From: a virus | Lineage: Duplodnaviria > Caudoviricetes | IMG/VR virus record: IMGVR_UViG_2706796498_000001 | Coordinates: 1 to 64,000 of that record | DNA: 64,000 nt | Reading direction: 5' to 3' (one strand) | Shown here: one piece after another, positions 1 through 47,367 of the stretch | Layout of the letters: every line of letters begins with the position of its first letter | How positions within the stretch are numbered: position 1 is the stretch's first letter | Made by a program: the position numbers and the translations under genes | Notes under the pieces: model-generated | What the model was told of the DNA's origin: nothing | Database searches by the model: none | The model's input: only the letters and a program-made list of their open reading frames with translations

Positions 1-97
1 ACCCCCTTCGCTTTAACTTGTCAAGTATACCAGCTTAGGTTACTAGAAAATATTTACTATAACTATAAAGGTTGATCCTAATAAATTTAAAAAGGTG

Positions 98-126
98 TTG
101 ACATTGCTTTCCTATAGGTGTATTAT
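98..126 (+). promoter_or_regulatory. sigma-A type early promoter
   Basis: TTGACA (98-103), 17-bp spacer, TATTAT (121-126). Confidence 0.8.
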
Positions 127-190
127 AAAGACAATCAAGAAACAAGGAAAAGAGGGGAAGCAAACAAGATAAAAATAATTAATAAAACTA

Positions 191-219
191 TTGACAAGTT
201 AAAACAAGTAAGGTATACT
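191..219 (+). promoter_or_regulatory. second tandem sigma-A type early promoter
   Basis: TTGACA (191-196), 17-bp spacer, TATACT (214-219). Confidence 0.8.
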
Positions 220-249
220 AAAGACAATCAAAGGAAAGGAATATTAAAC

Positions 250-678
250 ATGAAAAACTACAATGAAATGACTAGCAAGGAAAAGGCGCAATTAATCTTG
301 GAAAATACACCAAGTGAACAATTACAACAGTTAGCTATTGACCTATCCCAGGCCTATGGCGATTATGGAATTCAAACCACTGATGATTGGTTTGATACTA
401 TAGTCGAAGAATTCAATAGTGGTGTAGTGGAAACTGATATTGTAGAAATTATCAGAATTGCACAACAATCCAAGGATCTTGACATTTGCGATACTTTTAT
501 TCGTGGTAGTATCTACTACTATGATTATAAGACAAGCGACAATGCACTAGACTTGGTTAATGATGAGGAACTATCAGAATGGATCGAAAACGCTATTGAA
601 GATGATAACCCTATTATTGAGGACGCTAACAACGAACTTGAAATTGAAGCTATGCAAGAAGGACTTAAAAACGATTAA
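250..678 (+). CDS. acidic hypothetical early protein
   Basis: ATG at 250 follows AAGGAAAGGA; the track's upstream extension overlaps the promoters; very D/E-rich. Confidence 0.75.
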   Translation: MKNYNEMTSKEKAQLILENTPSEQLQQLAIDLSQAYGDYGIQTTDDWFDTIVEEFNSGVVETDIVEIIRIAQQSKDLDICDTFIRGSIYYYDYKTSDNALDLVNDEELSEWIENAIEDDNPIIEDANNELEIEAMQEGLKND

Positions 679-686
679 GAATGAAC

Positions 687-717
687 GGCCGCCTGAAAAC
701 GAGCGGTCTTTTTTTTT
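687..717 (+). terminator. intrinsic terminator
   Basis: GGCCGC...GCGGTC stem plus T9. Confidence 0.75.
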
Positions 718-1030
718 ATCGCATATCACTTGACTTTTGCAGCAGGATATGGTATACACCCCTCCCCCCCGTTTGTCAAGTACCAATCCAGTACCTGACC
801 CCCTATCTGCTCTACCCTAGGTCACTTTAAAATATTTTCTAAAATTATAGGAATTTTATGAGACTGTTTAATTTGTCAATTGTATAAGAAAAGTGGCCCA
901 TTAAAGACCACTTCGTTTACACCCACCCCCCAGTCATTTATATAAGACTATTATCTGACAGGGATAAGAAAGCAATATTCCAAAAATATTTCCCCAAAAT
1001 TTTTAAGCCGGAAGAGGGCGTTTAACATAG

Positions 1031-2382: not shown

Positions 2383-2514
2383 AATTATATTCCTCCTTTT
2401 CTTTTGTCTTATCCTTTCGACAACTATATAATAACACAGCTAGAGATATTGTCAATAGTTTTTGTTGAAATAACTAAAATAAAAAGACCTAGTATTAACT
2501 GGGCCTTCTATTTA

Positions 2515-5136: not shown

Positions 5137-5144
5137 TATATTAA
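5137..5144 (+). promoter_or_regulatory. late-promoter-like motif TATATTAA
   Basis: same motif recurs directly upstream of most structural blocks (9287-, 24704-, 44820+, 51203-, 52995+, 56619+, 61200+). Confidence 0.65.
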
Positions 5145-9240: not shown

Positions 9241-9336
9241 TATTAAAACCTCCTAAAAAGTTTAGCTAAACTATGTTTTTCTAGACTTAATATAGGAGGT
9301 TAGCAAGCTACTTACCCCTCACTAACTATCATCGCC

Positions 9337-12637: not shown

Positions 12638-12768
12638 TATTATTACCTTCCTTTTCTTTTTTGTTCTTGTCCTTTCGACAACTATACAATACCACAAGTA
12701 GAGATGATGTCAATACTTTTTGTTAAAAAATATAAAATAAAAGACTGGTATTAACCAGCCTCTTATAC

Positions 12769-21386: not shown

Positions 21387-21485
21387 TATTAGTACCTTCC
21401 TTTTCTTTTTGTTCTTATCCTTTCGACAACTATATAATACCACAAGTAGAGATAGTGTCAATACTTTTTGTTAAAAAATATAAAA

Positions 21486-21634
21486 TAAAAGACTGCCCTG
21501 TAAACCAATACAAGACAGCCTTTGCACTGAATAAAGTCAAGCTACCTACCTACCGCACAAGTCTCGTCACAATACTTTGCTACCAAGGGGATAGTAAACT
21601 TAACCAACATTAATTTAACGACTAAATCAATGTA
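21486..21634 (-). ncRNA. candidate small RNA with a C-rich (anti-SD) loop
   Basis: TTGACA (21668-63), 17 bp, TGnTACTAT (21645-40); no RBS-led ORF; ends in a terminator nearly identical to that of the neighbouring unit. Confidence 0.55.
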
Positions 21635-21684
21635 ACTATATAGTATCACTTTAATATGGTAATGTCAATAGTTTGTTCTAAAAT

Positions 21685-21770
21685 AAAAAGACTGTTTGTA
21701 AACTAATACAAGACAGCCTTTCAACTAGGAGTGTCCTTTGACTGAAATCAAAGTTATATACGGAGGATTA
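21685..21770 (-). ncRNA. candidate small RNA with two anti-SD motifs
   Basis: TTGACA (21803-798), TGnTATTAT (21781-76); AAUCCUCC and CACUCCU; terminator 21685-21721. Confidence 0.55.
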
Positions 21771-21811
21771 ACCTAATAATAACATACCTTTACAATATGT
21801 CAACCCTAAAA

Positions 21812-24714: not shown

Positions 24715-24753
24715 TAAAAGCTCACCACCCATATTGGGTAGTGAGCTTCTTTT
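24715..24753. terminator. intrinsic terminator (bidirectional)
   Basis: AAGCTCAC.ACCC/GGGT.GTGAGCTT stem flanked by A- and T-tracts. Confidence 0.8.
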
Positions 24754-25285
24754 ATAAACTTGCGTATTGGTTTACGTGGAATATCAGCAAACAGACTTTA
24801 TTAGGTGACAGCACCTATCAGGCTTACTATTTGTTCGTCAACAAACAGCTCTGATAGCAAATGGCCAAGGCTGGGCTGGGATCGGTACCCACCAACTTTC
24901 ACTAAGCGTAAGCATAGATTGTAATATACATAACTTGTAAATTTAAATACCGTTAGCTACTCATACACCACTGGACTGTTATACACGTGTTACCACGCTT
25001 CATCGGTAACTACCTTAATGAGACCTCCCGCTTTGGGTCATTCGCTTGTTCAAGGCGATTTAACTACGGGTATAGTATTGTGGTTAGCCAGTCCGTGGCT
25101 ACCCTAAATCCTCAAGCTAATTTCCATGATTACCTCCACCCTAGATTTTTTTCTCTAGTTGGTAACACTATTAACTGTTACTAATTGAAATGGCTAAGCT
25201 ATCGTTTAACCACGTCTTAGGTGCTTTATAGGTAATCATGAGGGGCGGGTTTGCAATACCCTTATCCACCCACTTCAAGTTTACA
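24754..25285 (-). ncRNA. large structured ncRNA (~530 nt), ROOL-like candidate
   Basis: no credible ORF; TTGACG-17-TGnTAATAT promoter at 25320-25292; terminator directly after; ends pair (24755-62/25276-83); perfect 11-bp helix 25125-35/25230-40; many hairpins. Confidence 0.65.
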
Positions 25286-25309
25286 TTTATTATATTAACA
25301 TACTAGAGT

Positions 25310-30472: not shown

Positions 30473-30561
30473 CGGAGAATGAGGGATTTGAACCCTCGCA
30501 CCGGTTTCCCGGCCTACACCCTTAGCAGGGGCGCCCCTTCAACCAACTTGGGTAATTCTCC
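30473..30561 (-). tRNA. tRNA-Ser(GCT)
   Basis: GGAGAAT/ATTCTCC acceptor, CCC-CT GCT AA-GGG anticodon arm, long variable arm, GGTTCAAATCC; no encoded CCA. Confidence 0.93.
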
Positions 30562-30636
30562 AAAATGTTGACCCCAAGATCTAGTGGGAATTGAAGTAAT
30601 TAAAAAAGAGAAAGTTTTAATTAAAAGGGTCAACAA

Positions 30637-30709
30637 TGCTAATTACAAGAATCGAACTTGTAACCTCCTGCTTACAAGGCAGGCGCTCTGCCGATTGAGC
30701 TAAATTAGC
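30637..30709 (-). tRNA. tRNA-Thr(TGT)
   Basis: GCTAATT/AATTAGC acceptor, CCTGC-CT TGT AA-GCAGG, GTTCGATT; no encoded CCA. Confidence 0.93.
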
Positions 30710-33240: not shown

Positions 33241-33306
33241 TCTATTGACAATTAGGACGGAGTGATAGATAATAAAGACAATCAAATAGAAAGGAAGATT
33301 GATTAC

Positions 33307-33411
33307 ATGAAAGAAGAAGATAAGTTTAACTATGATTTAATTAACCTAACTACCAGTGTTATCGTTGGTAGTCTGGTTAGTTTACTATTAGTAGCACTGT
33401 TTTTAGGTTAA
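33307..33411 (+). CDS. small membrane peptide (34 aa, not in the track)
   Basis: TTGACA promoter at 33245; AAAGGAAG RBS; C-terminal TM. Confidence 0.6.
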   Translation: MKEEDKFNYDLINLTTSVIVGSLVSLLLVALFLG

Positions 33412-37285: not shown

Positions 37286-38755
37286 ATGACATTTAAAAAA
37301 CGATACACAGTGCCAATTGTATTAGCGATGGCTACTCTCGCTCTATCAACTCCAGTTGCGACTGGTGCTGTACCTTTAGCCGAAAATCAGGTATCTACTA
37401 CGTTAGTTGCCCATGCCGCAACAATTAAGCACTATGGTGTGGACTGGTCAAAGTATCAAGGTAATTCTGGTATCTGGGGGTATTCACGGGACGACTTTTC
37501 AATCTCTCAAATTGGTGGGTATTACAATGGTACCTTTGTACCTCAAAGCACTTATTCTTCTCAAGTTGCTAATACCATTGCCCAGAACAAGCGTGCCCAC
37601 ACGTACATCTTTTCCCAATTTAGTGGTACATGGCAAGCTGACCAAATGCTGAATTACTACCTTCCTAGGATTCAAACGCCTAAAGGATCGATTGTGGCCC
37701 TTGACGTGGAATCGGGTAATCCAGACACGGCAAGTGTTGAGTATGCGTTAAAGCGGGTGCAAGACGCCGGTTACACGGCGGTTCTTTACGGTTATAAGGG
37801 ATTCTTGATTAACCATTTGGGGACAGATGGCTTGCAAGAGATTGCTAATCAGTACCCGTTATGGTTGGCCGAATATCCAAATTATCAAGTGACAACCGAA
37901 CCAAATTACAACTTCTTCCCGTCCTTTGATAACGTGCAGATGTTACAATTCACGTCAACTTATATTGCTGGTGGGCTTGATGGAAATGTAGACTTCACCG
38001 GTATTACCGAGAATGGTTATAAGAACGGGAATGCTCAACGGCCAGCAACTAAGACACCGGCAACTGAAACTGGTCAACAACTGCACCAAGATACACACAG
38101 TTATAATGTTAAGAGTGGTGATACCTTATCAGCCATTGCAAGCAAGTACAACATGACTGTAAACGCCTTAGCTACCTTGAATGGTATTTCTAACCCGAAC
38201 CTGATCTACCCGGGACAAACACTCCGAGTTGCTGATAGTGGTAAGGGTAATAGTGTTTCAGATAAGGCCACGGCCCCAATTGCTAATAATGTTTCCACAA
38301 ATTCTTATGTTGTTAAGAGTGGTGACACCTTATCGGGGATTGCTAGTCGTTATGGAATGTCAACCAGTGCCTTGGCTAGTTTAAACGGAATTAGTAATGC
38401 TAACCTTATTTATCCGGGACAAGTTTTAAAGGTTAGTGGTAGTTCTAATGGTTCATCGGCTACTACTTATACGGTCAAGAGTGGTGATAGCCTTTCTGGT
38501 ATTGCTAGTCGTTACGGGACAACCGTTAGCGCCTTGGCTAGTTTAAATGGTATTTCTAACCCAAACTGGATCTACCCGGGCCAAGTTTTAAAGATTAGTG
38601 GTAGTCAAGCTAGTTCCCACACTTATACGGTTCGGTCTGGTGACACATTATCTGGTATTGCTAGTCGGCTAGGGGTATCTTGGTACTCCTTAAAGGCTAA
38701 GAATGGGATTAGTAATGCTAACCTTATTTATCCGGGACAAGTTTTATCTTATTAA
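37286..38755 (+). CDS. endolysin: signal peptide, GH25 muramidase, four LysM
   Basis: [26 protein letters not shown]; four Y.V.SGDTLS.IA repeats. Confidence 0.92.
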
Positions 38756-38790
38756 CGTTTGACAGAGGGTAATAGTATGTTATAATAAAG

Positions 38791-38864
38791 ACAGTTAATA
38801 CTATCCTCCTTCAAATAGTTTTCCATGTTAAAGTCTAGGTGTAACAGCCTAGGCTTTTGTTTTT
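38791..38864 (+). ncRNA. candidate ~70-nt small RNA with an anti-SD loop
   Basis: TTGACA (38759-64), TGnTATAAT (38781-86); ACUAU-CCUCCUUCAA-AUAGU hairpin; terminator 38831-38864. Confidence 0.6.
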
Positions 38865-38906: not shown

Positions 38907-39578
38907 ATGGCTTTAAAGACCGCCGAACAGGCAGAACAAGAAATGAAGATTAATCTTACTAATTTAATTAAGGCAGTAGGTGGCGTTAAGTTAGCTGATC
39001 TTAACAACAAGTTTGTGGTAATTAAGAACATTACTGATAGTGGTAACGTTTACGTTGATGGTGGTGATTATCCGCAGTTCTTTGCAATTGTTGGGAGTAA
39101 TGTATATCATGTAACTGAACAACAATTCTCTGACCCTACAGAGGGTAAGTTAGTTATTACTTTAGATAGTGGTAAGAAGCAAGTTTCTTACAAGGTTGCA
39201 CACAAGGAAGATCAACCATACGAACGTTTTAACACGCTTCGTCAAGTAAGTTATTTTGGTGACGACGGGCAAGCGCTTCTTCAAGCTCTCAAGGCTCACA
39301 TTTTAGGAACTTACAATATCCATACTTATGACGCATACCTTACGAGTGTTCCTGAACTTAATGCTGACGTTAAGGCTAACAGTTCCGCTAGTCAAGCACC
39401 TGCAAGCGCAAGTACATCTAGTCAAGCACCTGCAAGCGCAAGTACATCTAGTCAAGCACCTGCAAGCGCAAGTACATCTAGTCAAGCACCTACAAGCGCA
39501 AGTACATCTAGTCAAGCACCTACAAGCGCTAGTCAACCAGCAAGCAGTTCAGCTGAACCCGCAAGTTCCACTAATTAA
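38907..39578 (+). CDS. late, probably virion protein with Ser/Ala-rich repeat tail
   Basis: TATATTA upstream; SQAPASASTS repeats. Confidence 0.7.
   Translation: MALKTAEQAEQEMKINLTNLIKAVGGVKLADLNNKFVVIKNITDSGNVYVDGGDYPQFFAIVGSNVYHVTEQQFSDPTEGKLVITLDSGKKQVSYKVAHKEDQPYERFNTLRQVSYFGDDGQALLQALKAHILGTYNIHTYDAYLTSVPELNADVKANSSASQAPASASTSSQAPASASTSSQAPASASTSSQAPTSASTSSQAPTSASQPASSSAEPASSTN
39388..39535 (+). repeat. 30-bp coding tandem repeat, about 5 copies
   Basis: CTAGTCAAGCACCT(G/A)CAAGCGCAAGTACAT unit. Confidence 0.9.
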
Positions 39579-41269: not shown

Positions 41270-43111
41270 GTGTTATTATTGAATGGTACTCAACTGGTTA
41301 AAGCCACTCGAAAGATGTTTAAACTTTCCCCAGATGATCGAGTAACGATGGATCAATTAAATTATGTATTGATGATGAGTAAGCCTAGTAACTATATTGT
41401 TGCTAACCATACAATTCGGGGAAATCCAATTACCTTTAATATTCCCGACCATAATATTAATCGGGCTTTGGCTCACCGTCCTTGGCAAGTTGACATTTTG
41501 AATGATACCTACCTAGACTTGATTATTATTAAGTCTCGGCAGTTAGGGCTATCTGAATTAGGGATTGAACAATTAATTTGGTGGCTTGATACACATTCAT
41601 TTGATCGGGTCAATGCTTTGTATACTTTCCCAACTAATCGACAGTTGGAGGACTTTGTAGCCCAACGTTTACAACCTGAATTTAATCATGGTTATTATCG
41701 TTCATTGATTTATGATCCTAAATCGATGACTTTAAAGAAGATGAAGATCAGAGATTCAAATTTAGTTTTCCGCTCCAGTTCTAGTGGGGCTACTATGGAA
41801 GGTATGGACTTGGATTTCGTTTCGCTTGATGAGTACGACCGTCTAAATCCGTTAGCGGAACAATCAGCTTTGCAAGGTATGACTTCTTCAAAGTATAAAA
41901 TGTTGCGCCGATGGAGTACCCCGACCGTGCCTTCGTACGGCATACACAAACTATTTGAACAATCTGATCAACGGCGTTGGTACCATAAATGTTCTCATTG
42001 CGGTTATGAACAAGTGTTGGACTATGAAAAGAATATTCAACAAATTAACCCAGATGGGGTTGATGATATTGGTTTAACAGTACAACCCGGTACCTTCCAG
42101 TTTGTCTGTGCTAAGTGTGGGCGTCCTTTAGATCGTTGGTATAGTGGTTATTGGGTAACTGAACGACCATTAGCTGGACGGACACATGGGTATTCTATTT
42201 CTCAAATGGACGCCGTGTGGGTGAGTGCCGACCAACTCAAGCAAGATGAGTTACGGGCACCATCAAAACAGTTTTTCTATAACTATTCTTTAGGTATGCC
42301 TTATGAAGATAAGTCCGTGGCCTTTCACGATTATGATGTATACTCTAATGAAATTGACTATGAAAAGCCTGAACAGAGAACAGACGAATATCGTTTTGTA
42401 GCAACCGGGATTGATTGGGGAGAACATAATCATACTGTTGTGACTATTGGAATGACTACCACCGGTCAAATTAGGCTTATGGATATTACCTTTATTCCTC
42501 GGTCAACTGGTACTGAACATATTGAACAAGACCTAAACCAAGTGGTTAGAAAGATTAATCAGTACAACCCTGATATTATTTGTCCAGACTTAGGTTTTTC
42601 TGGGTCATATGACCAAAAGCTGTTAGCTTACTATGGCCCTGAAAGGGTATATTCTGTTAAGGTTAGATCAGCTAAAACCAATGGTGACTACAACTCACAT
42701 TTCAGTGACGCTGATAATACAGTTACAATTGATAAGTACACACAAAATATGATGATGATTGCTAACATTAAGCGTGGTGATATTAAGTTTTGGCGAGGTT
42801 CACGGGTGGATCCAATTATTCAAACTTTTATTAAGCACGTCCAAAATGTTGTCTTTAGAACCGATGAAAAGGAAGATCCGGCTACTCATACAATTGTTTA
42901 TGACAAGGTTATCTTACGTAAAGGTCCAGACCACTCGGAACAAACGCTCATTTATGCCTTTGTGGGCCTAGATAAGTTGATGAAAGAGTATGCGTTAGCA
43001 CATCGGAACGCTATTGAAATGCAGTTTTTATCACCGGAATTATTTAATGGAGAACAGACCGACTTACAGCGTGAGTATGGGGTGACAGATGTAAAGGAAT
43101 TTGGTGAGTGA
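41270..43111 (+). CDS. terL: terminase large subunit
   Basis: KSRQLGLSE Walker A, SLDEYD Walker B, WSTPT, GIDWG nuclease, KGPDH. Confidence 0.93.
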   Translation: MLLLNGTQLVKATRKMFKLSPDDRVTMDQLNYVLMMSKPSNYIVANHTIRGNPITFNIPDHNINRALAHRPWQVDILNDTYLDLIIIKSRQLGLSELGIEQLIWWLDTHSFDRVNALYTFPTNRQLEDFVAQRLQPEFNHGYYRSLIYDPKSMTLKKMKIRDSNLVFRSSSSGATMEGMDLDFVSLDEYDRLNPLAEQSALQGMTSSKYKMLRRWSTPTVPSYGIHKLFEQSDQRRWYHKCSHCGYEQVLDYEKNIQQINPDGVDDIGLTVQPGTFQFVCAKCGRPLDRWYSGYWVTERPLAGRTHGYSISQMDAVWVSADQLKQDELRAPSKQFFYNYSLGMPYEDKSVAFHDYDVYSNEIDYEKPEQRTDEYRFVATGIDWGEHNHTVVTIGMTTTGQIRLMDITFIPRSTGTEHIEQDLNQVVRKINQYNPDIICPDLGFSGSYDQKLLAYYGPERVYSVKVRSAKTNGDYNSHFSDADNTVTIDKYTQNMMMIANIKRGDIKFWRGSRVDPIIQTFIKHVQNVVFRTDEKEDPATHTIVYDKVILRKGPDHSEQTLIYAFVGLDKLMKEYALAHRNAIEMQFLSPELFNGEQTDLQREYGVTDVKEFGE

Positions 43112-44658
43112 TAATCATGGGATTATTTGATATGTTTAGAGAACAAAAGAATTACTTTAACCCGGAGGAACTAACTAAGTCCTATCAGAATGACTTAGCT
43201 AAGAAGTTTACTCCGGGGAAAGCTGACCAACGACTAGATGATTTATCAATTACAATTGGTAATGATCGAGAAAACCAAAGGAGTGGTCAGCGTACACAGA
43301 TTGACCAAGACTATTTCTTGCGTAAGAAGGCACAACTGGCCCAGTATGCAGAAGATATTCTGGTTCAATCAATTATCCGTACTCGAACTAACCAAGTTGT
43401 TCGTTATGCTACTCCCGCACATTTAAGTCCGACTGGTGATGGGTTTAGAGTGATTAAGAAGGGTAAAACATATTCTTCTATGACAAAAGAAGAACAGAAA
43501 CGTTCTAAGGAACTTGAACAGTTTATCTATTATACAGGTAAAGATCAATTTGATTGGCGTGACAATTTTAGTGAGTTTCTTGCTAAGGTTATCTATGACT
43601 ACTACGTCTTTGATCAGGTTAATATTGAGCGTATCTTTGAATCTAAGTCCAGTAATCAACTGAACCACTTTAACCATGTTAGTGCTGGTAATATTCTAAT
43701 TGAGCGGTTCCCTAAATCTGTTGACCGCCCAAAGACGTATGTCCAGTATGTTGACCATAAAAAGCAAAGCACGTATACTAGCAAGGATTTAGTCTTTAAG
43801 ACTTTCTGGTCTCAACCAAACGCTCGTTCTGGTGGTTATGGTAAAAGCCCGGTGGAAGCAACCATTCCCCAATTGAATTACCGAACCAACGCTGAACAGT
43901 TTAATGCCCGTTTCTTCTCCCAAGGTGGTTTAACTCGGGGTATGCTGTTGATTGACCCCGGTGATGGAACAACGGGAAGTCGGGCAAGTTTAGACGCCTT
44001 ACGGCGTAATTTAACCCCGGCCCAGTCGGTTAATGGTAGTTGGAAGATCCCTATCATGTTTGGTCATGACGCCAAGTATGTTAATATGCAACAGAATTCT
44101 AAGGATATGGAGTTTACCCAATTCCTAGGGTATTTAACAAATGAGATCTGTGCTGTTTTTAATATCCAACCCGAAGAAATTAATGTTAATAACCGTGGTG
44201 GGGTAAATGGTAGTGGTAAAGGATCTTCTGTTTTAAATGAAGGTAAGACAGCTCAAGCTAAGTTAGCCGCTTCAAAGGAATCTGGTTTAATTCCCTTGAT
44301 CAAGAATATCGAACGGTTAATGACTGACAGTATTCTTGCTTATGTTGATAATGAATATCAATTTATTTTCACACCGAGTGACGAAGAAAAGGCTGAAAAA
44401 GAAGTGTCTTTAATTCAGGCTAAGGAAAATGTTGGCTTAACGATTAATGAAGGTCGGGCCATGATGGGATTGAAACCAGTAGAGAATGGTGATGTTCCAG
44501 GTAGTCCAGCTTATATTCAGTACCTTAATACCATTGCTAAGAATGATCCAGATTCCAATAAGGAATTACAGCAAAAGGATAAGAGTAACCCTGATAAGGG
44601 AGTATCTGGTGCTGAAATGGCCGAAGAAAAACAAAAGCAAGAAGCCAAAGAAAAATAA
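43108..44658 (+). CDS. portal protein
   Basis: IIRTRTNQV, YG.SPVE, RFFSQGG.TRGML, KDMEF..FL, INEGRA. Confidence 0.92.
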   Translation: MIIMGLFDMFREQKNYFNPEELTKSYQNDLAKKFTPGKADQRLDDLSITIGNDRENQRSGQRTQIDQDYFLRKKAQLAQYAEDILVQSIIRTRTNQVVRYATPAHLSPTGDGFRVIKKGKTYSSMTKEEQKRSKELEQFIYYTGKDQFDWRDNFSEFLAKVIYDYYVFDQVNIERIFESKSSNQLNHFNHVSAGNILIERFPKSVDRPKTYVQYVDHKKQSTYTSKDLVFKTFWSQPNARSGGYGKSPVEATIPQLNYRTNAEQFNARFFSQGGLTRGMLLIDPGDGTTGSRASLDALRRNLTPAQSVNGSWKIPIMFGHDAKYVNMQQNSKDMEFTQFLGYLTNEICAVFNIQPEEINVNNRGGVNGSGKGSSVLNEGKTAQAKLAASKESGLIPLIKNIERLMTDSILAYVDNEYQFIFTPSDEEKAEKEVSLIQAKENVGLTINEGRAMMGLKPVENGDVPGSPAYIQYLNTIAKNDPDSNKELQQKDKSNPDKGVSGAEMAEEKQKQEAKEK

Positions 44659-44702
44659 TCGATAAAGTGTTGACAATTTGATAGAGTGTGTTAATATATA
44701 GT

Positions 44703-44801
44703 CAAGGCTTTAGTCAAGCCTAGTGATAAAACTTCTTTCTTTTCTTTGATTTGTCTTTCTACAATGCAAAGAGGCCATGAATTAACGTTCATGGTCTTTT
44801 T
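44703..44801 (+). ncRNA. candidate ~100-nt antisense small RNA
   Basis: TTGACA (44670-75), TGnTAATAT (44692-97); 5' hairpin, pyrimidine tract, terminator 44772-44801; no ORF. Confidence 0.6.
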
Positions 44802-44908
44802 GTTTTTGTTATAATTTCTTATATTAATTCTAGAACAAAGTTTTGTTATATTATACCTAGAATTAATAAATAGATATTCATCTAGATGAAAGGAAGTTAT
44901 TAGAACAT

Positions 44909-46399
44909 ATGCCTAAGCTAGAAACAAAAAGTCACGCGGATACTGTATTTAAGTCCACGAATCGTTCCGAAGAAATCGCTAAGAACGATGGTATGGTTTC
45001 AGAAATTAGTAAGGCTTTGGAGGCCGGTTATGGTATTACCCCTGACACGCAAGTTGATGGAGCGGCTTACCGTCTGGAAAGTCTTGACCCAACTCTGAAC
45101 ATTACTACGTTTGGTGAAAATGACTTTACCATTTACAAGGACTTGGAACGGGTTCCTGTTAATCAAACCGTTCAAAAGTACACTGTTTACTACAACCACG
45201 GTCGGACGGGACACCAACTGTTCCAACCGGAAATTGCTAAGTTAAGTGTTAACACGCCTAACGCACGTCAAAAGACCGTTAACGTTAAGTTCGTAGTTGA
45301 CACCAAGGGTGCTTCCTTTGCTATGCAATGGGCTAACACGACTGTTGACACCCAAACCCTGCTGGAAATTAGTGGGGTAAACACGATTGCTAAGGCAATT
45401 GAATACGCTACCTTCTATGGAGATTCTGACCTTGCTACCCAAGATGGCGAAGGTTACGAATTTGACGGTATCTCCAAGCTGATGGATCAAGATAACGTTG
45501 TTGACCTTCATGGTGGTGCTTTAACTCCAGGTAAGCTGAATGAAGCCGCTACGATTATTGGTAAGCGTGGTTACGGGAAGGCAACTGACGCTTATATGCC
45601 AGTTGGTGTTAAGGCTGACTTCATTAACCAACACCTTGGTTCCCAACGGATTCTTCAACCGAACCCGGCTGACCACGGAATGCAAGTAGGGTTTGATATT
45701 ACCCGGTTCATCTCCGCTAATGGGGACATTAACCTGCATGGTTCTACTATCATGGATCTTGACTTGGTACTTGATACTGAATCCACTCCAGATGTTAATG
45801 CTGGGGCCGCTCCTACGGTTCAAGCTAAGCAAGTCGCTGGTCAAGGTGGTGCCTTCTTAACTGATGATAAGAAGGACGCAAACGGTCGGACAATCCTTAG
45901 CAAGGAAGTAGGGACTGAACTTCAATATCGGGTAGTTGCTGTTGGTGCCCACGACAGCCTTCCATCTGACATTGCTACGGCTACTCCGACTGCCGCAACT
46001 GATGGGGTAACTCTTACAATTACTCTTTCCCCATTGGTAACTGACCTTCCGCACTATGTAGCCATCTATCGTAAGTCTGATGTGCCGGGTGATGAAGATT
46101 TCCGTCTGATTGACCGGGTACCGATGTCCAAGTTCCAAAACGGGACTTTGACTTACACCGATGTCAATGACACTATTCCGGGTACGGCTGACGTATTCAT
46201 TCTTGATCGGCGTCCAGAAAACATTCGTTACCTTGAGTTTGCACCAATTATGAAGTTCCCATTGGCTGTAACGACCACTGCTACGAACTTCGCACTCCTC
46301 TGGTACGGGGCACTACAGCTAATTTACCCGAAGCGTTGTGTAAAGCTTCACAATGTATTATATGCTAGTGACGCTGAATCCTTGTTTGACTTAGCATAG
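44909..46399 (+). CDS. major capsid protein
   Basis: SKALEAGYGITPDTQVDGAAYRLESLD, IAKAIEYATFYGD, EFDG..KL, DAYMPVGVKADF: A511/K-type capsid. Confidence 0.95.
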   Translation: MPKLETKSHADTVFKSTNRSEEIAKNDGMVSEISKALEAGYGITPDTQVDGAAYRLESLDPTLNITTFGENDFTIYKDLERVPVNQTVQKYTVYYNHGRTGHQLFQPEIAKLSVNTPNARQKTVNVKFVVDTKGASFAMQWANTTVDTQTLLEISGVNTIAKAIEYATFYGDSDLATQDGEGYEFDGISKLMDQDNVVDLHGGALTPGKLNEAATIIGKRGYGKATDAYMPVGVKADFINQHLGSQRILQPNPADHGMQVGFDITRFISANGDINLHGSTIMDLDLVLDTESTPDVNAGAAPTVQAKQVAGQGGAFLTDDKKDANGRTILSKEVGTELQYRVVAVGAHDSLPSDIATATPTAATDGVTLTITLSPLVTDLPHYVAIYRKSDVPGDEDFRLIDRVPMSKFQNGTLTYTDVNDTIPGTADVFILDRRPENIRYLEFAPIMKFPLAVTTTATNFALLWYGALQLIYPKRCVKLHNVLYASDAESLFDLA

Positions 46400-46503: not shown

Positions 46504-47367
46504 TTGGTGGCAAAATTTGATGTGTTTCTCCCGTTTGATAAAGTTGCCAAGTCTGATGATGATAAAGTCATTACGATTAGTGGCTACTCATCGACAGGGG
46601 ACAGAGATTATCAGGGAGAAACAATTGACCCTAATGGTATTCACTATGAATATTTGTTAGATCATGGTTATATTGACTATGAACATGATACTGATCAAAT
46701 TATTGGGGTACCAACGGAAAATACGCATTTAGATAACAAGGGTTTATTTCTAGAGGCTAAGCTATTTTCTAATATGGAACAGGTACAGAATATTATGAAG
46801 CTGTACAAGAACATTGAGGAAAATGATATTGATCGGAATTTAGGTTTTTCTATTGAAGGTAGTGTCATTGAACGGGACGATGAAGATGATTCAATTATTC
46901 GTCAAGTTCAGATTACTGGGGTAGCAGTAACTACACACCCAGCTAACCCCGCTTGTAGTTGGAAGGTACTAAATAAGTCCTTGTTTAACTCTAATAACAA
47001 GAGTAGTGACCAAGTAATCAAAGACATGGAAACTATGACTGCTGGGTATGATGTAAATAGTGCAACAGTTCATGGTGGGGCCGCCTTTCGTAAGGAATCT
47101 TTTTTAGGCACCTTTAACAATTTAGTATTTAATCTAAAGCAGGCCAAGAAACTTGGGCTAGAAACGGTGGCAACTAGTTTAGCCGAAGAGTTAGATAAGA
47201 ATGACGCTGACGAGGACGCAAGGGTTATCTTTGTGCAGTTGTTTACTGGTTTATCCGAAGCAGACGCCCGGTTAATTGTGCAAACAGTTGATCAACAAGC
47301 AGATACCGATAACCGGTTGAGGCTACTTGAAGGTTCATCTAACGCAGATGATGATGATGATGATTAA
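46504..47367 (+). CDS. prohead protease
   Basis: GYSST..RDYQGE, GYIDYEH, LGFSIEG, VAVTTHPANP. Confidence 0.88.
   Translation: MVAKFDVFLPFDKVAKSDDDKVITISGYSSTGDRDYQGETIDPNGIHYEYLLDHGYIDYEHDTDQIIGVPTENTHLDNKGLFLEAKLFSNMEQVQNIMKLYKNIEENDIDRNLGFSIEGSVIERDDEDDSIIRQVQITGVAVTTHPANPACSWKVLNKSLFNSNNKSSDQVIKDMETMTAGYDVNSATVHGGAAFRKESFLGTFNNLVFNLKQAKKLGLETVATSLAEELDKNDADEDARVIFVQLFTGLSEADARLIVQTVDQQADTDNRLRLLEGSSNADDDDDD

Follow-up and report, generated by a model that had tools for sequence, protein, structure and literature searches.

In large virulent phages that infect Gram-positive hosts, temporal control is usually ascribed to sigma factors and protein shut-off factors. The c4 RNA lies in the immunity region of temperate phage-plasmids, is cut from the transcript that it controls and addresses one operon through two short seed blocks; sar and OOP are each transcribed opposite a single target, to which they are fully complementary. 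The CI RNA of satellite phage P4 and the CA RNA of N15 are complementary to repeats in the leader of their own early operon and silence early genes mainly by premature transcription termination in lysogenic immunity, being processed from the leader under control. Pairing of phage RNAs with the phage's own messages is described in temperate phages for c4 (P1/P7), sar (P22) and OOP (lambda) (PMC12197685), and the c4 antisense RNA (Citron & Schuster 1990) is listed in that review. This work concerns positions 44670–44808 of a 64,000-nucleotide (nt) stretch of DNA (IMG/VR record IMGVR_UViG_2706796498_000001, positions 1–64,000; hereafter the window), where a well-formed computational candidate for a small-RNA gene separates the portal gene from the capsid gene. 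The window covers the first 64 kb of a phage genome that is complete at 106,071 bp and has 38% G+C. Its closest database relative is Lactobacillus phage LPhi1ADMT15, which has Limosilactobacillus fermentum as host and is filed under Herelleviridae, genus Hopescreekvirus, and the phage is a virulent L. fermentum phage of this type. Our favoured reading, with a probability of about 40%, is that positions 44670–44808 form a gene for a non-coding RNA of ~100 nt that pairs with, and damps, the phage's early leaders. Three observations carry this reading: the anatomy of the unit, its conservation in close relatives, and a complementarity to the early leaders as a family that exceeds the effect of composition.

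The candidate resembles c4, sar, OOP and CI in principle but is a member of none of those families. As with c4, a small phage RNA is predicted to act in trans on the phage's own message at the ribosome-binding region and to block downstream expression. Unlike c4, it would do so in a virulent phage, from within the head-gene module and from its own promoter and terminator, with at least 15 dispersed leaders as predicted targets. The c4 arrangement, in which the RNA is processed from the operon transcript of its target in the immunity region of a temperate element, was not found here, and there is no sequence or Rfam relationship between the two RNAs. With sar and OOP the candidate shares its short length and, as predicted, pairing at or near the ribosome-binding site (sar) or perhaps the promotion of RNase III cleavage (OOP) (PMC12197685). 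Unlike either, it is encoded 11–44 kb from its predicted targets and its pairing is imperfect. In contrast to P4 CI and N15 CA, nothing here points to termination control or lysogeny. The Hfq-independent RNAs RNAIII, RsaE and LhrC of Firmicutes likewise have an unpaired pyrimidine-rich seed, pair with the Shine–Dalgarno (SD) sequence and end in an intrinsic terminator; these, however, are host RNAs with short C-rich loop seeds, whereas here a linear U/C tract of 30 nt without UCCC or CCUCC is predicted to address leaders of the phage itself. From the Listeria Herelleviridae phage CKA15, abundant non-coding regions to which no function is assigned, and which have no terminators or UCCC motifs, are described, and the UCCC idea is discussed (PMC12282133).

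A further parallel is the polypurine 5' stabiliser of SP82 early RNA (Hue, Cohen & Bechhofer 1995, as cited in PMC7509114 and PMC3997798). The likeness lies in purine-rich, SD-like early leaders in a related phage group, on which ribosome binding prolongs the life of the mRNA, and this is the likely nature of the targets here. The stabiliser itself is a target feature rather than a regulator. We know of no description of an RNA that counteracts a stabiliser of the SP82 type. In the most far-reaching form of the proposal, given below, early-gene shut-off would be RNA-based in a virulent Herelleviridae phage, where it has so far been ascribed to proteins. An RNA reading shared early leaders in trans would add a post-transcriptional layer to the temporal programme, and would tie this layer to the 5' protection that ribosomes give to polypurine leaders in SP82.

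A promoter-to-terminator unit between portal and capsid

The 250-nt gap between the portal gene (43108–44658) and the gene for the major capsid protein (44909–46399) holds a discrete, conserved unit that runs from promoter to terminator (44670–44808) without an open reading frame (ORF), a description supported by computation. The elements of the unit all lie on the plus strand. Its promoter consists of TTGACA (44670–44675), a 16-nt spacer and an extended -10, TGtTAATAT (44689–44697), in the layout of the early class described below. It matches 10 of the 12 consensus positions in addition to the extended -10, and its sequence (…GTGTGT-TAATAT-ATAGTC…) places it in the larger of two early classes. 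The predicted product is a non-coding RNA of ~100 nt (103 nt, 44704–44806), whose start is placed at the seventh nt downstream of the -10 hexamer and whose end is placed within the U run. The fold of this RNA has a minimum free energy of -30.7 kcal/mol (z = -4.46 against 200 shuffles). A 5' hairpin (AGGCUU/AAGCCU, 44705–44721), with pairing probability above 0.8, begins at about +2 of the predicted RNA. At the other end is a Rho-independent terminator with a 17-pair stem, a 4-nt loop and a U run (44766–44808; -21.8 kcal/mol), which also closes the upstream terminase–portal operon. Between hairpin and terminator lies a 35-nt pyrimidine-rich seed with few purines, ACUUCUUUCUUUUCUUUGAUUUGUCUUUCUACAAU (44731–44765), which is antisense to early leaders and includes positions 44736–44758. 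An initial annotation of this DNA had described the segment as single-stranded, and this was largely borne out by the fold, with unpaired probabilities of 0.8–0.99 at 44733–44747 and one weak 6-bp helix (44725–44730 with 44750–44755) that costs ~2 kcal/mol to open. The opening cost of the seed is 2.0–2.8 kcal/mol.

No SD-led ORF was found in the unit on either strand. A 33-aa ORF on the minus strand (44691–44792) was rejected as a gene, having neither SD nor promoter and not being hydrophobic, as was a 16-codon frame on the plus strand from 44763 that has no SD. A minus-strand early promoter reading the leader-like complement of the tract was also considered and dismissed, there being no acceptable -10 or -35. 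Comparison of the RNA with the Rfam covariance models returned no family; the best match was RybB at 19.2 bits (gathering score 40; E = 0.13), and all others had E values of at least 1.

ORF-free units of this kind also occur elsewhere in the window. At 38759–38862 on the plus strand, adjoining the endolysin gene (37286–38755), a perfect TTGACA-16-TGtTATAAT promoter is followed by AAAGACAG..., an RNA of ~70 nt and a terminator. The RNA contains UAUCCUCCUUC, which is anti-SD-like, and a late-type motif, TGATATATTA, follows before the gene at 38907. On the minus strand at 21480–21803, upstream of the early promoter at (-)21461, two promoter-to-terminator units of ~90 and ~150 nt stand in tandem with near-identical terminators; one starts with AAUCCUCCGU and the other contains CUAUCCCCUUGG.

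With its promoter, short RNA and terminator immediately before the late gene that is most highly expressed, the unit could also regulate the capsid gene in cis as a leader or attenuator, a strong promoter being held by the terminator until late read-through, as at lambda pR'-tR'. The unit at 38759–38862 has the same layout before another late-type promoter. This explanation is nevertheless highly improbable. The capsid gene, as other structural genes, has late-type motifs of its own, and its two copies of TATATTA (44820–44826 and 44847–44853, plus strand) lie downstream of the terminator, not in the pR'-tR' arrangement in which a late gene depends on read-through. TATATTA is found 20–90 nt upstream of many structural and other genes, often as TGnTATATTA directly after a terminator, and probably serves the late (or middle) promoters of the phage as a -10-like element; up to four copies precede the capsid genes of relatives. 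Because the motifs sit downstream of the terminator, the capsid gene would have its own late-type promoter and the small unit would be a separate transcription unit. Further, the terminator is strong, the capsid initiation region is not within the 30 best of 132 predicted partners of the tract, and no antiterminator was identified, although no search aimed at antiterminators was made.

Complementarity to the early leaders

Promoter and leader classes were defined by a whole-genome scan for consensus sigma-A promoters. Two classes were found, each with conserved sequence directly 3' of the -10. The larger (main) class has at least 12 copies, which occur on either strand and toward each end of the genome, in front of small ORFs of unknown function, with the consensus TTGACA-N11-TGTGT-TATTAT-ATAGTTGTCGAAAGGAtAAGAAAAGAAAGGAG. 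The smaller class, TTGACA-N17-TAnnnT-AAAGACAATCAA followed by purines, has copies at 98, 191 and 33245. These promoters are here called early, a putative assignment made because they have the host-type consensus, front small genes of unknown function and are clustered toward both genome ends. A search of the phage genome with Pfam Sigma70_r2 gave no match, and no Pfam-type sigma factor was detected; the distinction between early and late is therefore drawn from the promoter motifs alone.

To the 18 leaders tested as a set, which were chosen by their promoters and not by pairing, the RNA pairs with a mean of -16.0 kcal/mol (the unit of all pairing energies below). Dinucleotide shuffles of the whole stretch gave -8.7 ± 1.4 (0/1000 reaching the real value), and shuffles of the CU tract only gave -11.8 ± 1.4 (p 0.001–0.002). 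The main class alone had a mean of -15.4 (whole-stretch shuffle 0/500; CU-tract shuffle p 0.012) and the AAAGAC class alone a mean of -19.0 (0/500; p 0.006). The real sequence also has far more strong sites than shuffled ones, the fifth-best genome site scoring -21.7 against -17.7 ± 1.1 in shuffles (0/105). Among 1,348 natural 45-mers with at least 28 pyrimidines, the 45-mer of the small RNA is equalled only by true leader-antisense 45-mers and is the best of the rest. All of the top 7 of 132 translation-initiation regions belong to early-promoter genes, and at matched purine content early leaders pair at -17.5 against -10.0 for others (p 7e-4). Taken over both early-leader classes, the complementarity is statistically significant and appears specific, with low-complexity composition as a caveat on these statistics. 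In line with the initial annotation, the predicted targets form a class sharing leaders and not one gene. The class itself was drawn too narrowly in that annotation: AAAGACAATCAA leaders are in, and so is the larger ATAGTTGTCGAAAGGA class, and the best predicted target is the leader at (-)2424.

The complementarity is distributed along the tract. CUACAA pairs with (G)UUGUAG/GUUGUCG at the starts of main-class leaders, GUCUUUC with GAAAG(G)A, CUUUGAUUUGUCUUU with AAAGACAA-UCAAAG, and CUUCUUUCUUUUC with the SD-proximal GAAAAGGAAGG. The reverse complement of the RNA thus resembles a composite early leader from about +1 through the SD, but that strand has no promoter and no start codon.

The initial annotation had named a single pair, 44736–44758 with 220–241 in the leader of the gene that starts at 250. 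This target (191–252, plus strand), inside the terminal repeat, comprises a TTGACA-17-TATACT promoter, then AAAGACAATCAAAGGAAAGGAA (220–241) and the ATG at 250. The duplex was confirmed as described, with 22 bp, two G–U pairs and one bulged U (-22.6, RNAduplex), and it spans both SD-like blocks, AAAGGA (230–235) and AAGGAA (236–241), upstream of the ATG. Opening the RNA costs 2.0 and opening the message 1.3, compared with -22.6 for the duplex. The pairing of the gene-250 message depends on where transcription starts: transcripts from the upstream tandem promoter at 98 would carry the whole site, whereas the message from promoter 191 alone, with a predicted start near 226, would pair over 16 nt only (-15.9).

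For the genome-wide comparison, an unrestricted RNAduplex scan was dropped, as long internal loops and purine tracts dominated it, and a dynamic programme for near-contiguous helices (Turner stacking, 1-nt bulges, 1x1 loops) was used to score the exposed 45 nt at 44722–44766 against both genome strands. With the RNA's own antisense strand excluded, site 220 scored -22.5 and was second genome-wide; the early leader at (-)2424 was first at -25.7, and the following sites were mostly early leaders too. When 105 dinucleotide shuffles were scanned in the same manner, 30% reached -22.5 and 9% reached -25.7 genome-wide. As a single pair, the named duplex is thus no better than its shuffled controls.

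The leader at (-)2424 (2383–2455, minus strand) is the best predicted target. It combines an early promoter with the leader ATAGTTGTCGAAAGGATAAGACAAAAGAAAAGGAGGAA of a 72-aa ORF, ranks first both genome-wide and among the 132 initiation regions (-25.7 as a contiguous helix, -27.4 by RNAduplex) and is identical in the relative L015. Gene 250 ranks second of 132. Main-class promoters with their leaders at 12638–12713 (-18.4) and 21387–21461 (-17.0), both on the minus strand, rank fourth and sixth. Between them, at rank five, is the AAAGACAATCAA-class promoter and leader at 33245–33309 (plus strand; 12-mer at 33274–33285; -17.4) before a 34-aa ORF of membrane type. The upstream tandem promoter with its 12-mer (127–138) and purine-rich leader (98–170, plus strand) forms a duplex of -23.6 with an internal loop and of -17.0 as a contiguous helix.

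The gene-like anatomy and the conservation would be equally expected if the RNA were real and had another job. It could act on host messages, serve as a general anti-SD mimic together with other CCUCC-bearing units, or be a sponge for an RNA-binding protein or ribosomal protein S1, the fit to the leaders being a by-product of its pyrimidines. Three further ORF-free promoter-to-terminator units carry AUCCUCCUU, AAUCCUCCGU or CUAUCCCCUU (CCUCC-like), pairing energy follows the purine content of the target, and the unit is an accessory cassette whose site is variable. We consider such a role unlikely, given that base order in the tract matters, with a loss of 4 kcal/mol on average in the tract-only shuffle (p 0.001–0.002), that early leaders are favoured at matched purine content, and that GAUUUGUC and CUACAA, two blocks of mixed sequence, correspond to blocks specific to the leaders and not to a generic SD.

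Conservation of the unit and of the leader motif

Four public runs over the stretch consist of contigs and were used for sequence comparison; a coverage gap over the terminator in X17 was dismissed as evidence, these being contig data only. Five close relatives have an unchanged CU tract: LPhi1ADMT15, the X1 and X17 contigs, and the metagenomic contigs L024 and L025, in which the capsid protein is 98% identical. In LPhi1ADMT15 the -10 is TATTAT, the class consensus, and one T is inserted after the 5' hairpin; its terminator is changed with pairing kept, a G–U becoming A–U and the stem gaining a C–G pair. Terminator changes in L024 and L025 also keep pairing. The core of the 5' hairpin stem is conserved; L024, L025 and X15 differ at its closing pair (44721 T>G). 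Promoter variants in the relatives are confined to the spacer (44682, 44684), the hexamers being spared there. Within the X1 contig, 18 substitutions are spread over 616 nt with none in 44685–44818 (p 0.012), and 6 substitutions and 1 indel fall within the 39 nt that follow.

In L024 (7558–9747) and L025 (5753–7942) a 729-aa gene of 2.2 kb lies between the portal gene and the small-RNA unit, at the equivalent of ~44650, and is absent here. Its product combines the domains AAA_33 kinase, Metallophos phosphatase and T4-type RNA ligase, a combination of RNA-repair type, and the junctions of the gene share the words AGAAAAATA. As the unit keeps its place before the capsid gene with this gene in between, it would travel with the capsid upstream region and not with the portal 3' end. 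Beyond the close relatives, a capsid-protein search of IMG/VR and the JGI metagenomes returned only relatives that are 63–68% identical, none of them with the unit. The exact 23-mer is absent from IMG/VR; its one match in species genomes, in an Ignavibacteriales metagenome-assembled genome, has an unrelated context and was set aside as chance. Exact-protein look-ups with two early proteins found nothing, and homologue look-ups recovered orthologous leaders on separate short contigs, never a leader and the RNA gene on one contig.

The 12-mer AAAGACAATCAA occurs at 127–138, 220–231 and 33274–33285, so that the leaders reported at 127 and 33274 were found again, and over the rest of the genome only the terminal-repeat copies at 105381 and 105474 were added. 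In 3/3 promoters it follows the -10 hexamer without a gap and thus would span about -6 to +6. The 12-mer accordingly placed would straddle the transcription start, and about half of it (the first ~6 nt) is probably untranscribed from its own promoter. How much of AAAGACAATCAA and ATAGTTGTCG is present in the messages is set by the transcript starts of promoters 98, 191, 33245 and (-)2455.

Orthologous leaders of gene 250 were taken from five metagenomic contigs with a protein identity of 61–99%. Wherever the contig reaches far enough upstream, [A/T]AA[G/A]ACAATCAA is retained immediately 3' of the -10, while spacers and SD regions differ. The position of the 12-mer is invariant down to 61% protein identity (L016, L018, L019), where the promoter spacers are completely different. 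Four 12-mer promoters lie within the 2.5-kb contig L016, and the variant leader AAAGACAATCAAAGAAAAGGAG of L018 agrees with the RNA, read as its reverse complement, at 19/20 positions plus one indel. The fixed position, and a conservation that reaches far outside the clade in which the RNA is known, suggest that the 12-mer has its own role at the promoter or at the message 5' end. If the RNA is functional, it makes use of a motif whose presence it does not account for.

Such a role raises an explanation at the DNA level, in which AAAGACAATCAA is an operator or initiation element for a phage or host protein and the inverted near-copy at 44744–44758 is an extra site ~60–100 bp upstream of the capsid late promoters. 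A promoter-level role is indicated by the fixed position after the -10 in every copy and agrees with the probable absence of the first half of the 12-mer from the transcript. As an account of the unit, however, it is improbable. The copy within the RNA gene has one extra base inside (AAAGACAAATCAAAG), which would break a rigid protein site, and the complementarity extends past the 12-mer into variable purine tracts and to the other leader class, neither of which is explained by a DNA site.

Proposed mode of action and genome setting

The transcript itself, its ends, its timing and each regulatory step are predictions read from the DNA. The host sigma-A polymerase would transcribe the RNA from a promoter of the phage's own early class, giving a product with a protective 5' hairpin at its start and a strong intrinsic terminator at its end. 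Late terminase–portal transcripts that stop at this terminator would carry the same sequence as their 3' end and could provide a second, late supply. The open pyrimidine tract would pair with the purine-rich leaders of promoter-proximal early messages, from near the 5' end through the SD, and both leader classes, AAAGACAAUCAAAGGA... and GUUGUCGAAAGGAUAAG..., would be addressed. Pairing may keep 30S subunits off the leader and so block translation. Ribosome binding near the 5' end of a message blocks 5'-to-3' decay. For an SP82 phage message in B. subtilis, the ribosome-binding site is cited as contributing to half-life (Hue et al. 1995, PMC7509114). Loss of the ribosome-dependent 5' protection of polypurine leaders in Firmicutes would thus leave the message open to decay, and the duplexes of ~20 bp are perhaps RNase III substrates. 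The net effect would be that early messages, of the host-takeover type, are damped, or are cleared after a delay once early transcription stops. In its most far-reaching form, the proposal is that one RNA, made early and again as the 3' end of late head-gene transcripts, silences the whole promoter-proximal early regulon by stripping ribosome-dependent protection; this we regard as doubtful.

Several findings weigh against the proposed damping of early leaders. The RNA's own promoter is of the early class, and the RNA would therefore be made together with its targets. Feedback on, or delayed clearing of, early messages fits this better than a late-made shut-off signal, and of the trans-acting early-gene shut-off first proposed, the exposed tract antisense to early leaders including the SD was retained, while a simple shut-off fits poorly with an early promoter. 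Pairing between pyrimidines and purines is promiscuous, with energy tracking the purine content of the target (rho -0.66), and the named single pair is at chance level (p about 0.3 genome-wide). An nhmmer profile of 17 leaders finds the antisense site only at E = 77, against 1e-3 to 1 for family members, and the evidence therefore lies at the level of RNA pairing, G–U included, and not in clear DNA homology. Part of the 12-mer is probably lost from messages that start at its own promoter, and its retention down to 61% identity of the gene-250 protein means that its conservation may owe nothing to the RNA. All relatives with the unit share an identical seed, which leaves zero seed variants to score for covariation. 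A lineage with 81–84% identical portal and capsid proteins (L026 5403–6297 with L020 1–126) has a different cassette at the site, with an early-type promoter, two small ORFs and a tail-tube paralogue in the gap, and lineages at 63–73% have late promoter motifs only and no unit. The small-RNA unit behaves as an accessory element, and the portal–capsid gap is a hot spot for cassette exchange.

Some of these findings would also be expected if the locus had no RNA function and consisted of a terminator for the upstream late operon, an orphan early promoter and a decayed, inverted copy of a leader. Exchange of cassettes at the site, the lack of the unit in more distant relatives, the chance-level single pair and a reverse complement that is leader-like but without promoter or start codon all agree with this explanation. 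We nonetheless hold it to be quite unlikely, because the tract is the least variable intergenic part in five independent relatives, next to 39 nt with 6 substitutions and an indel, and because the promoter retains its hexamers, one of which is closer to consensus in one relative. A decayed relic is also unlikely to remain the best non-leader match among ~1,300 natural 45-mers. A small RNA that damps early leaders remains our favoured reading.

The direct terminal repeats of the genome are ~817 bp long (window 1–817 and genome 105255–106071) and hold the tandem promoters at 98 and 191 together with the complete gene 250–678 (142 aa, a PHROG of unknown function). On our reading, this position would place gene 250–678 among the earliest genes to enter the cell. 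The head module around the small-RNA unit comprises, besides portal and capsid, the large terminase (41270–43111) and the prohead protease (46504–47367). TATATTA motifs were recorded on the plus strand at 5137, 11410, 34358, 38867, 44820, 44847, 46466, 52995, 56619 and 61200 and on the minus strand at 9294, 24711 and 51210. Among other non-coding RNAs of the window, a ROOL RNA at 24752–25297 (minus strand) is a full-length match to Rfam RF03087 (129 bits against a gathering score of 99) and is followed by a strong terminator (24748–24719). Two tRNA genes lie at 30473–30709 on the minus strand (Rfam, 76 and 54 bits), with a consensus promoter in front at (-)30894.

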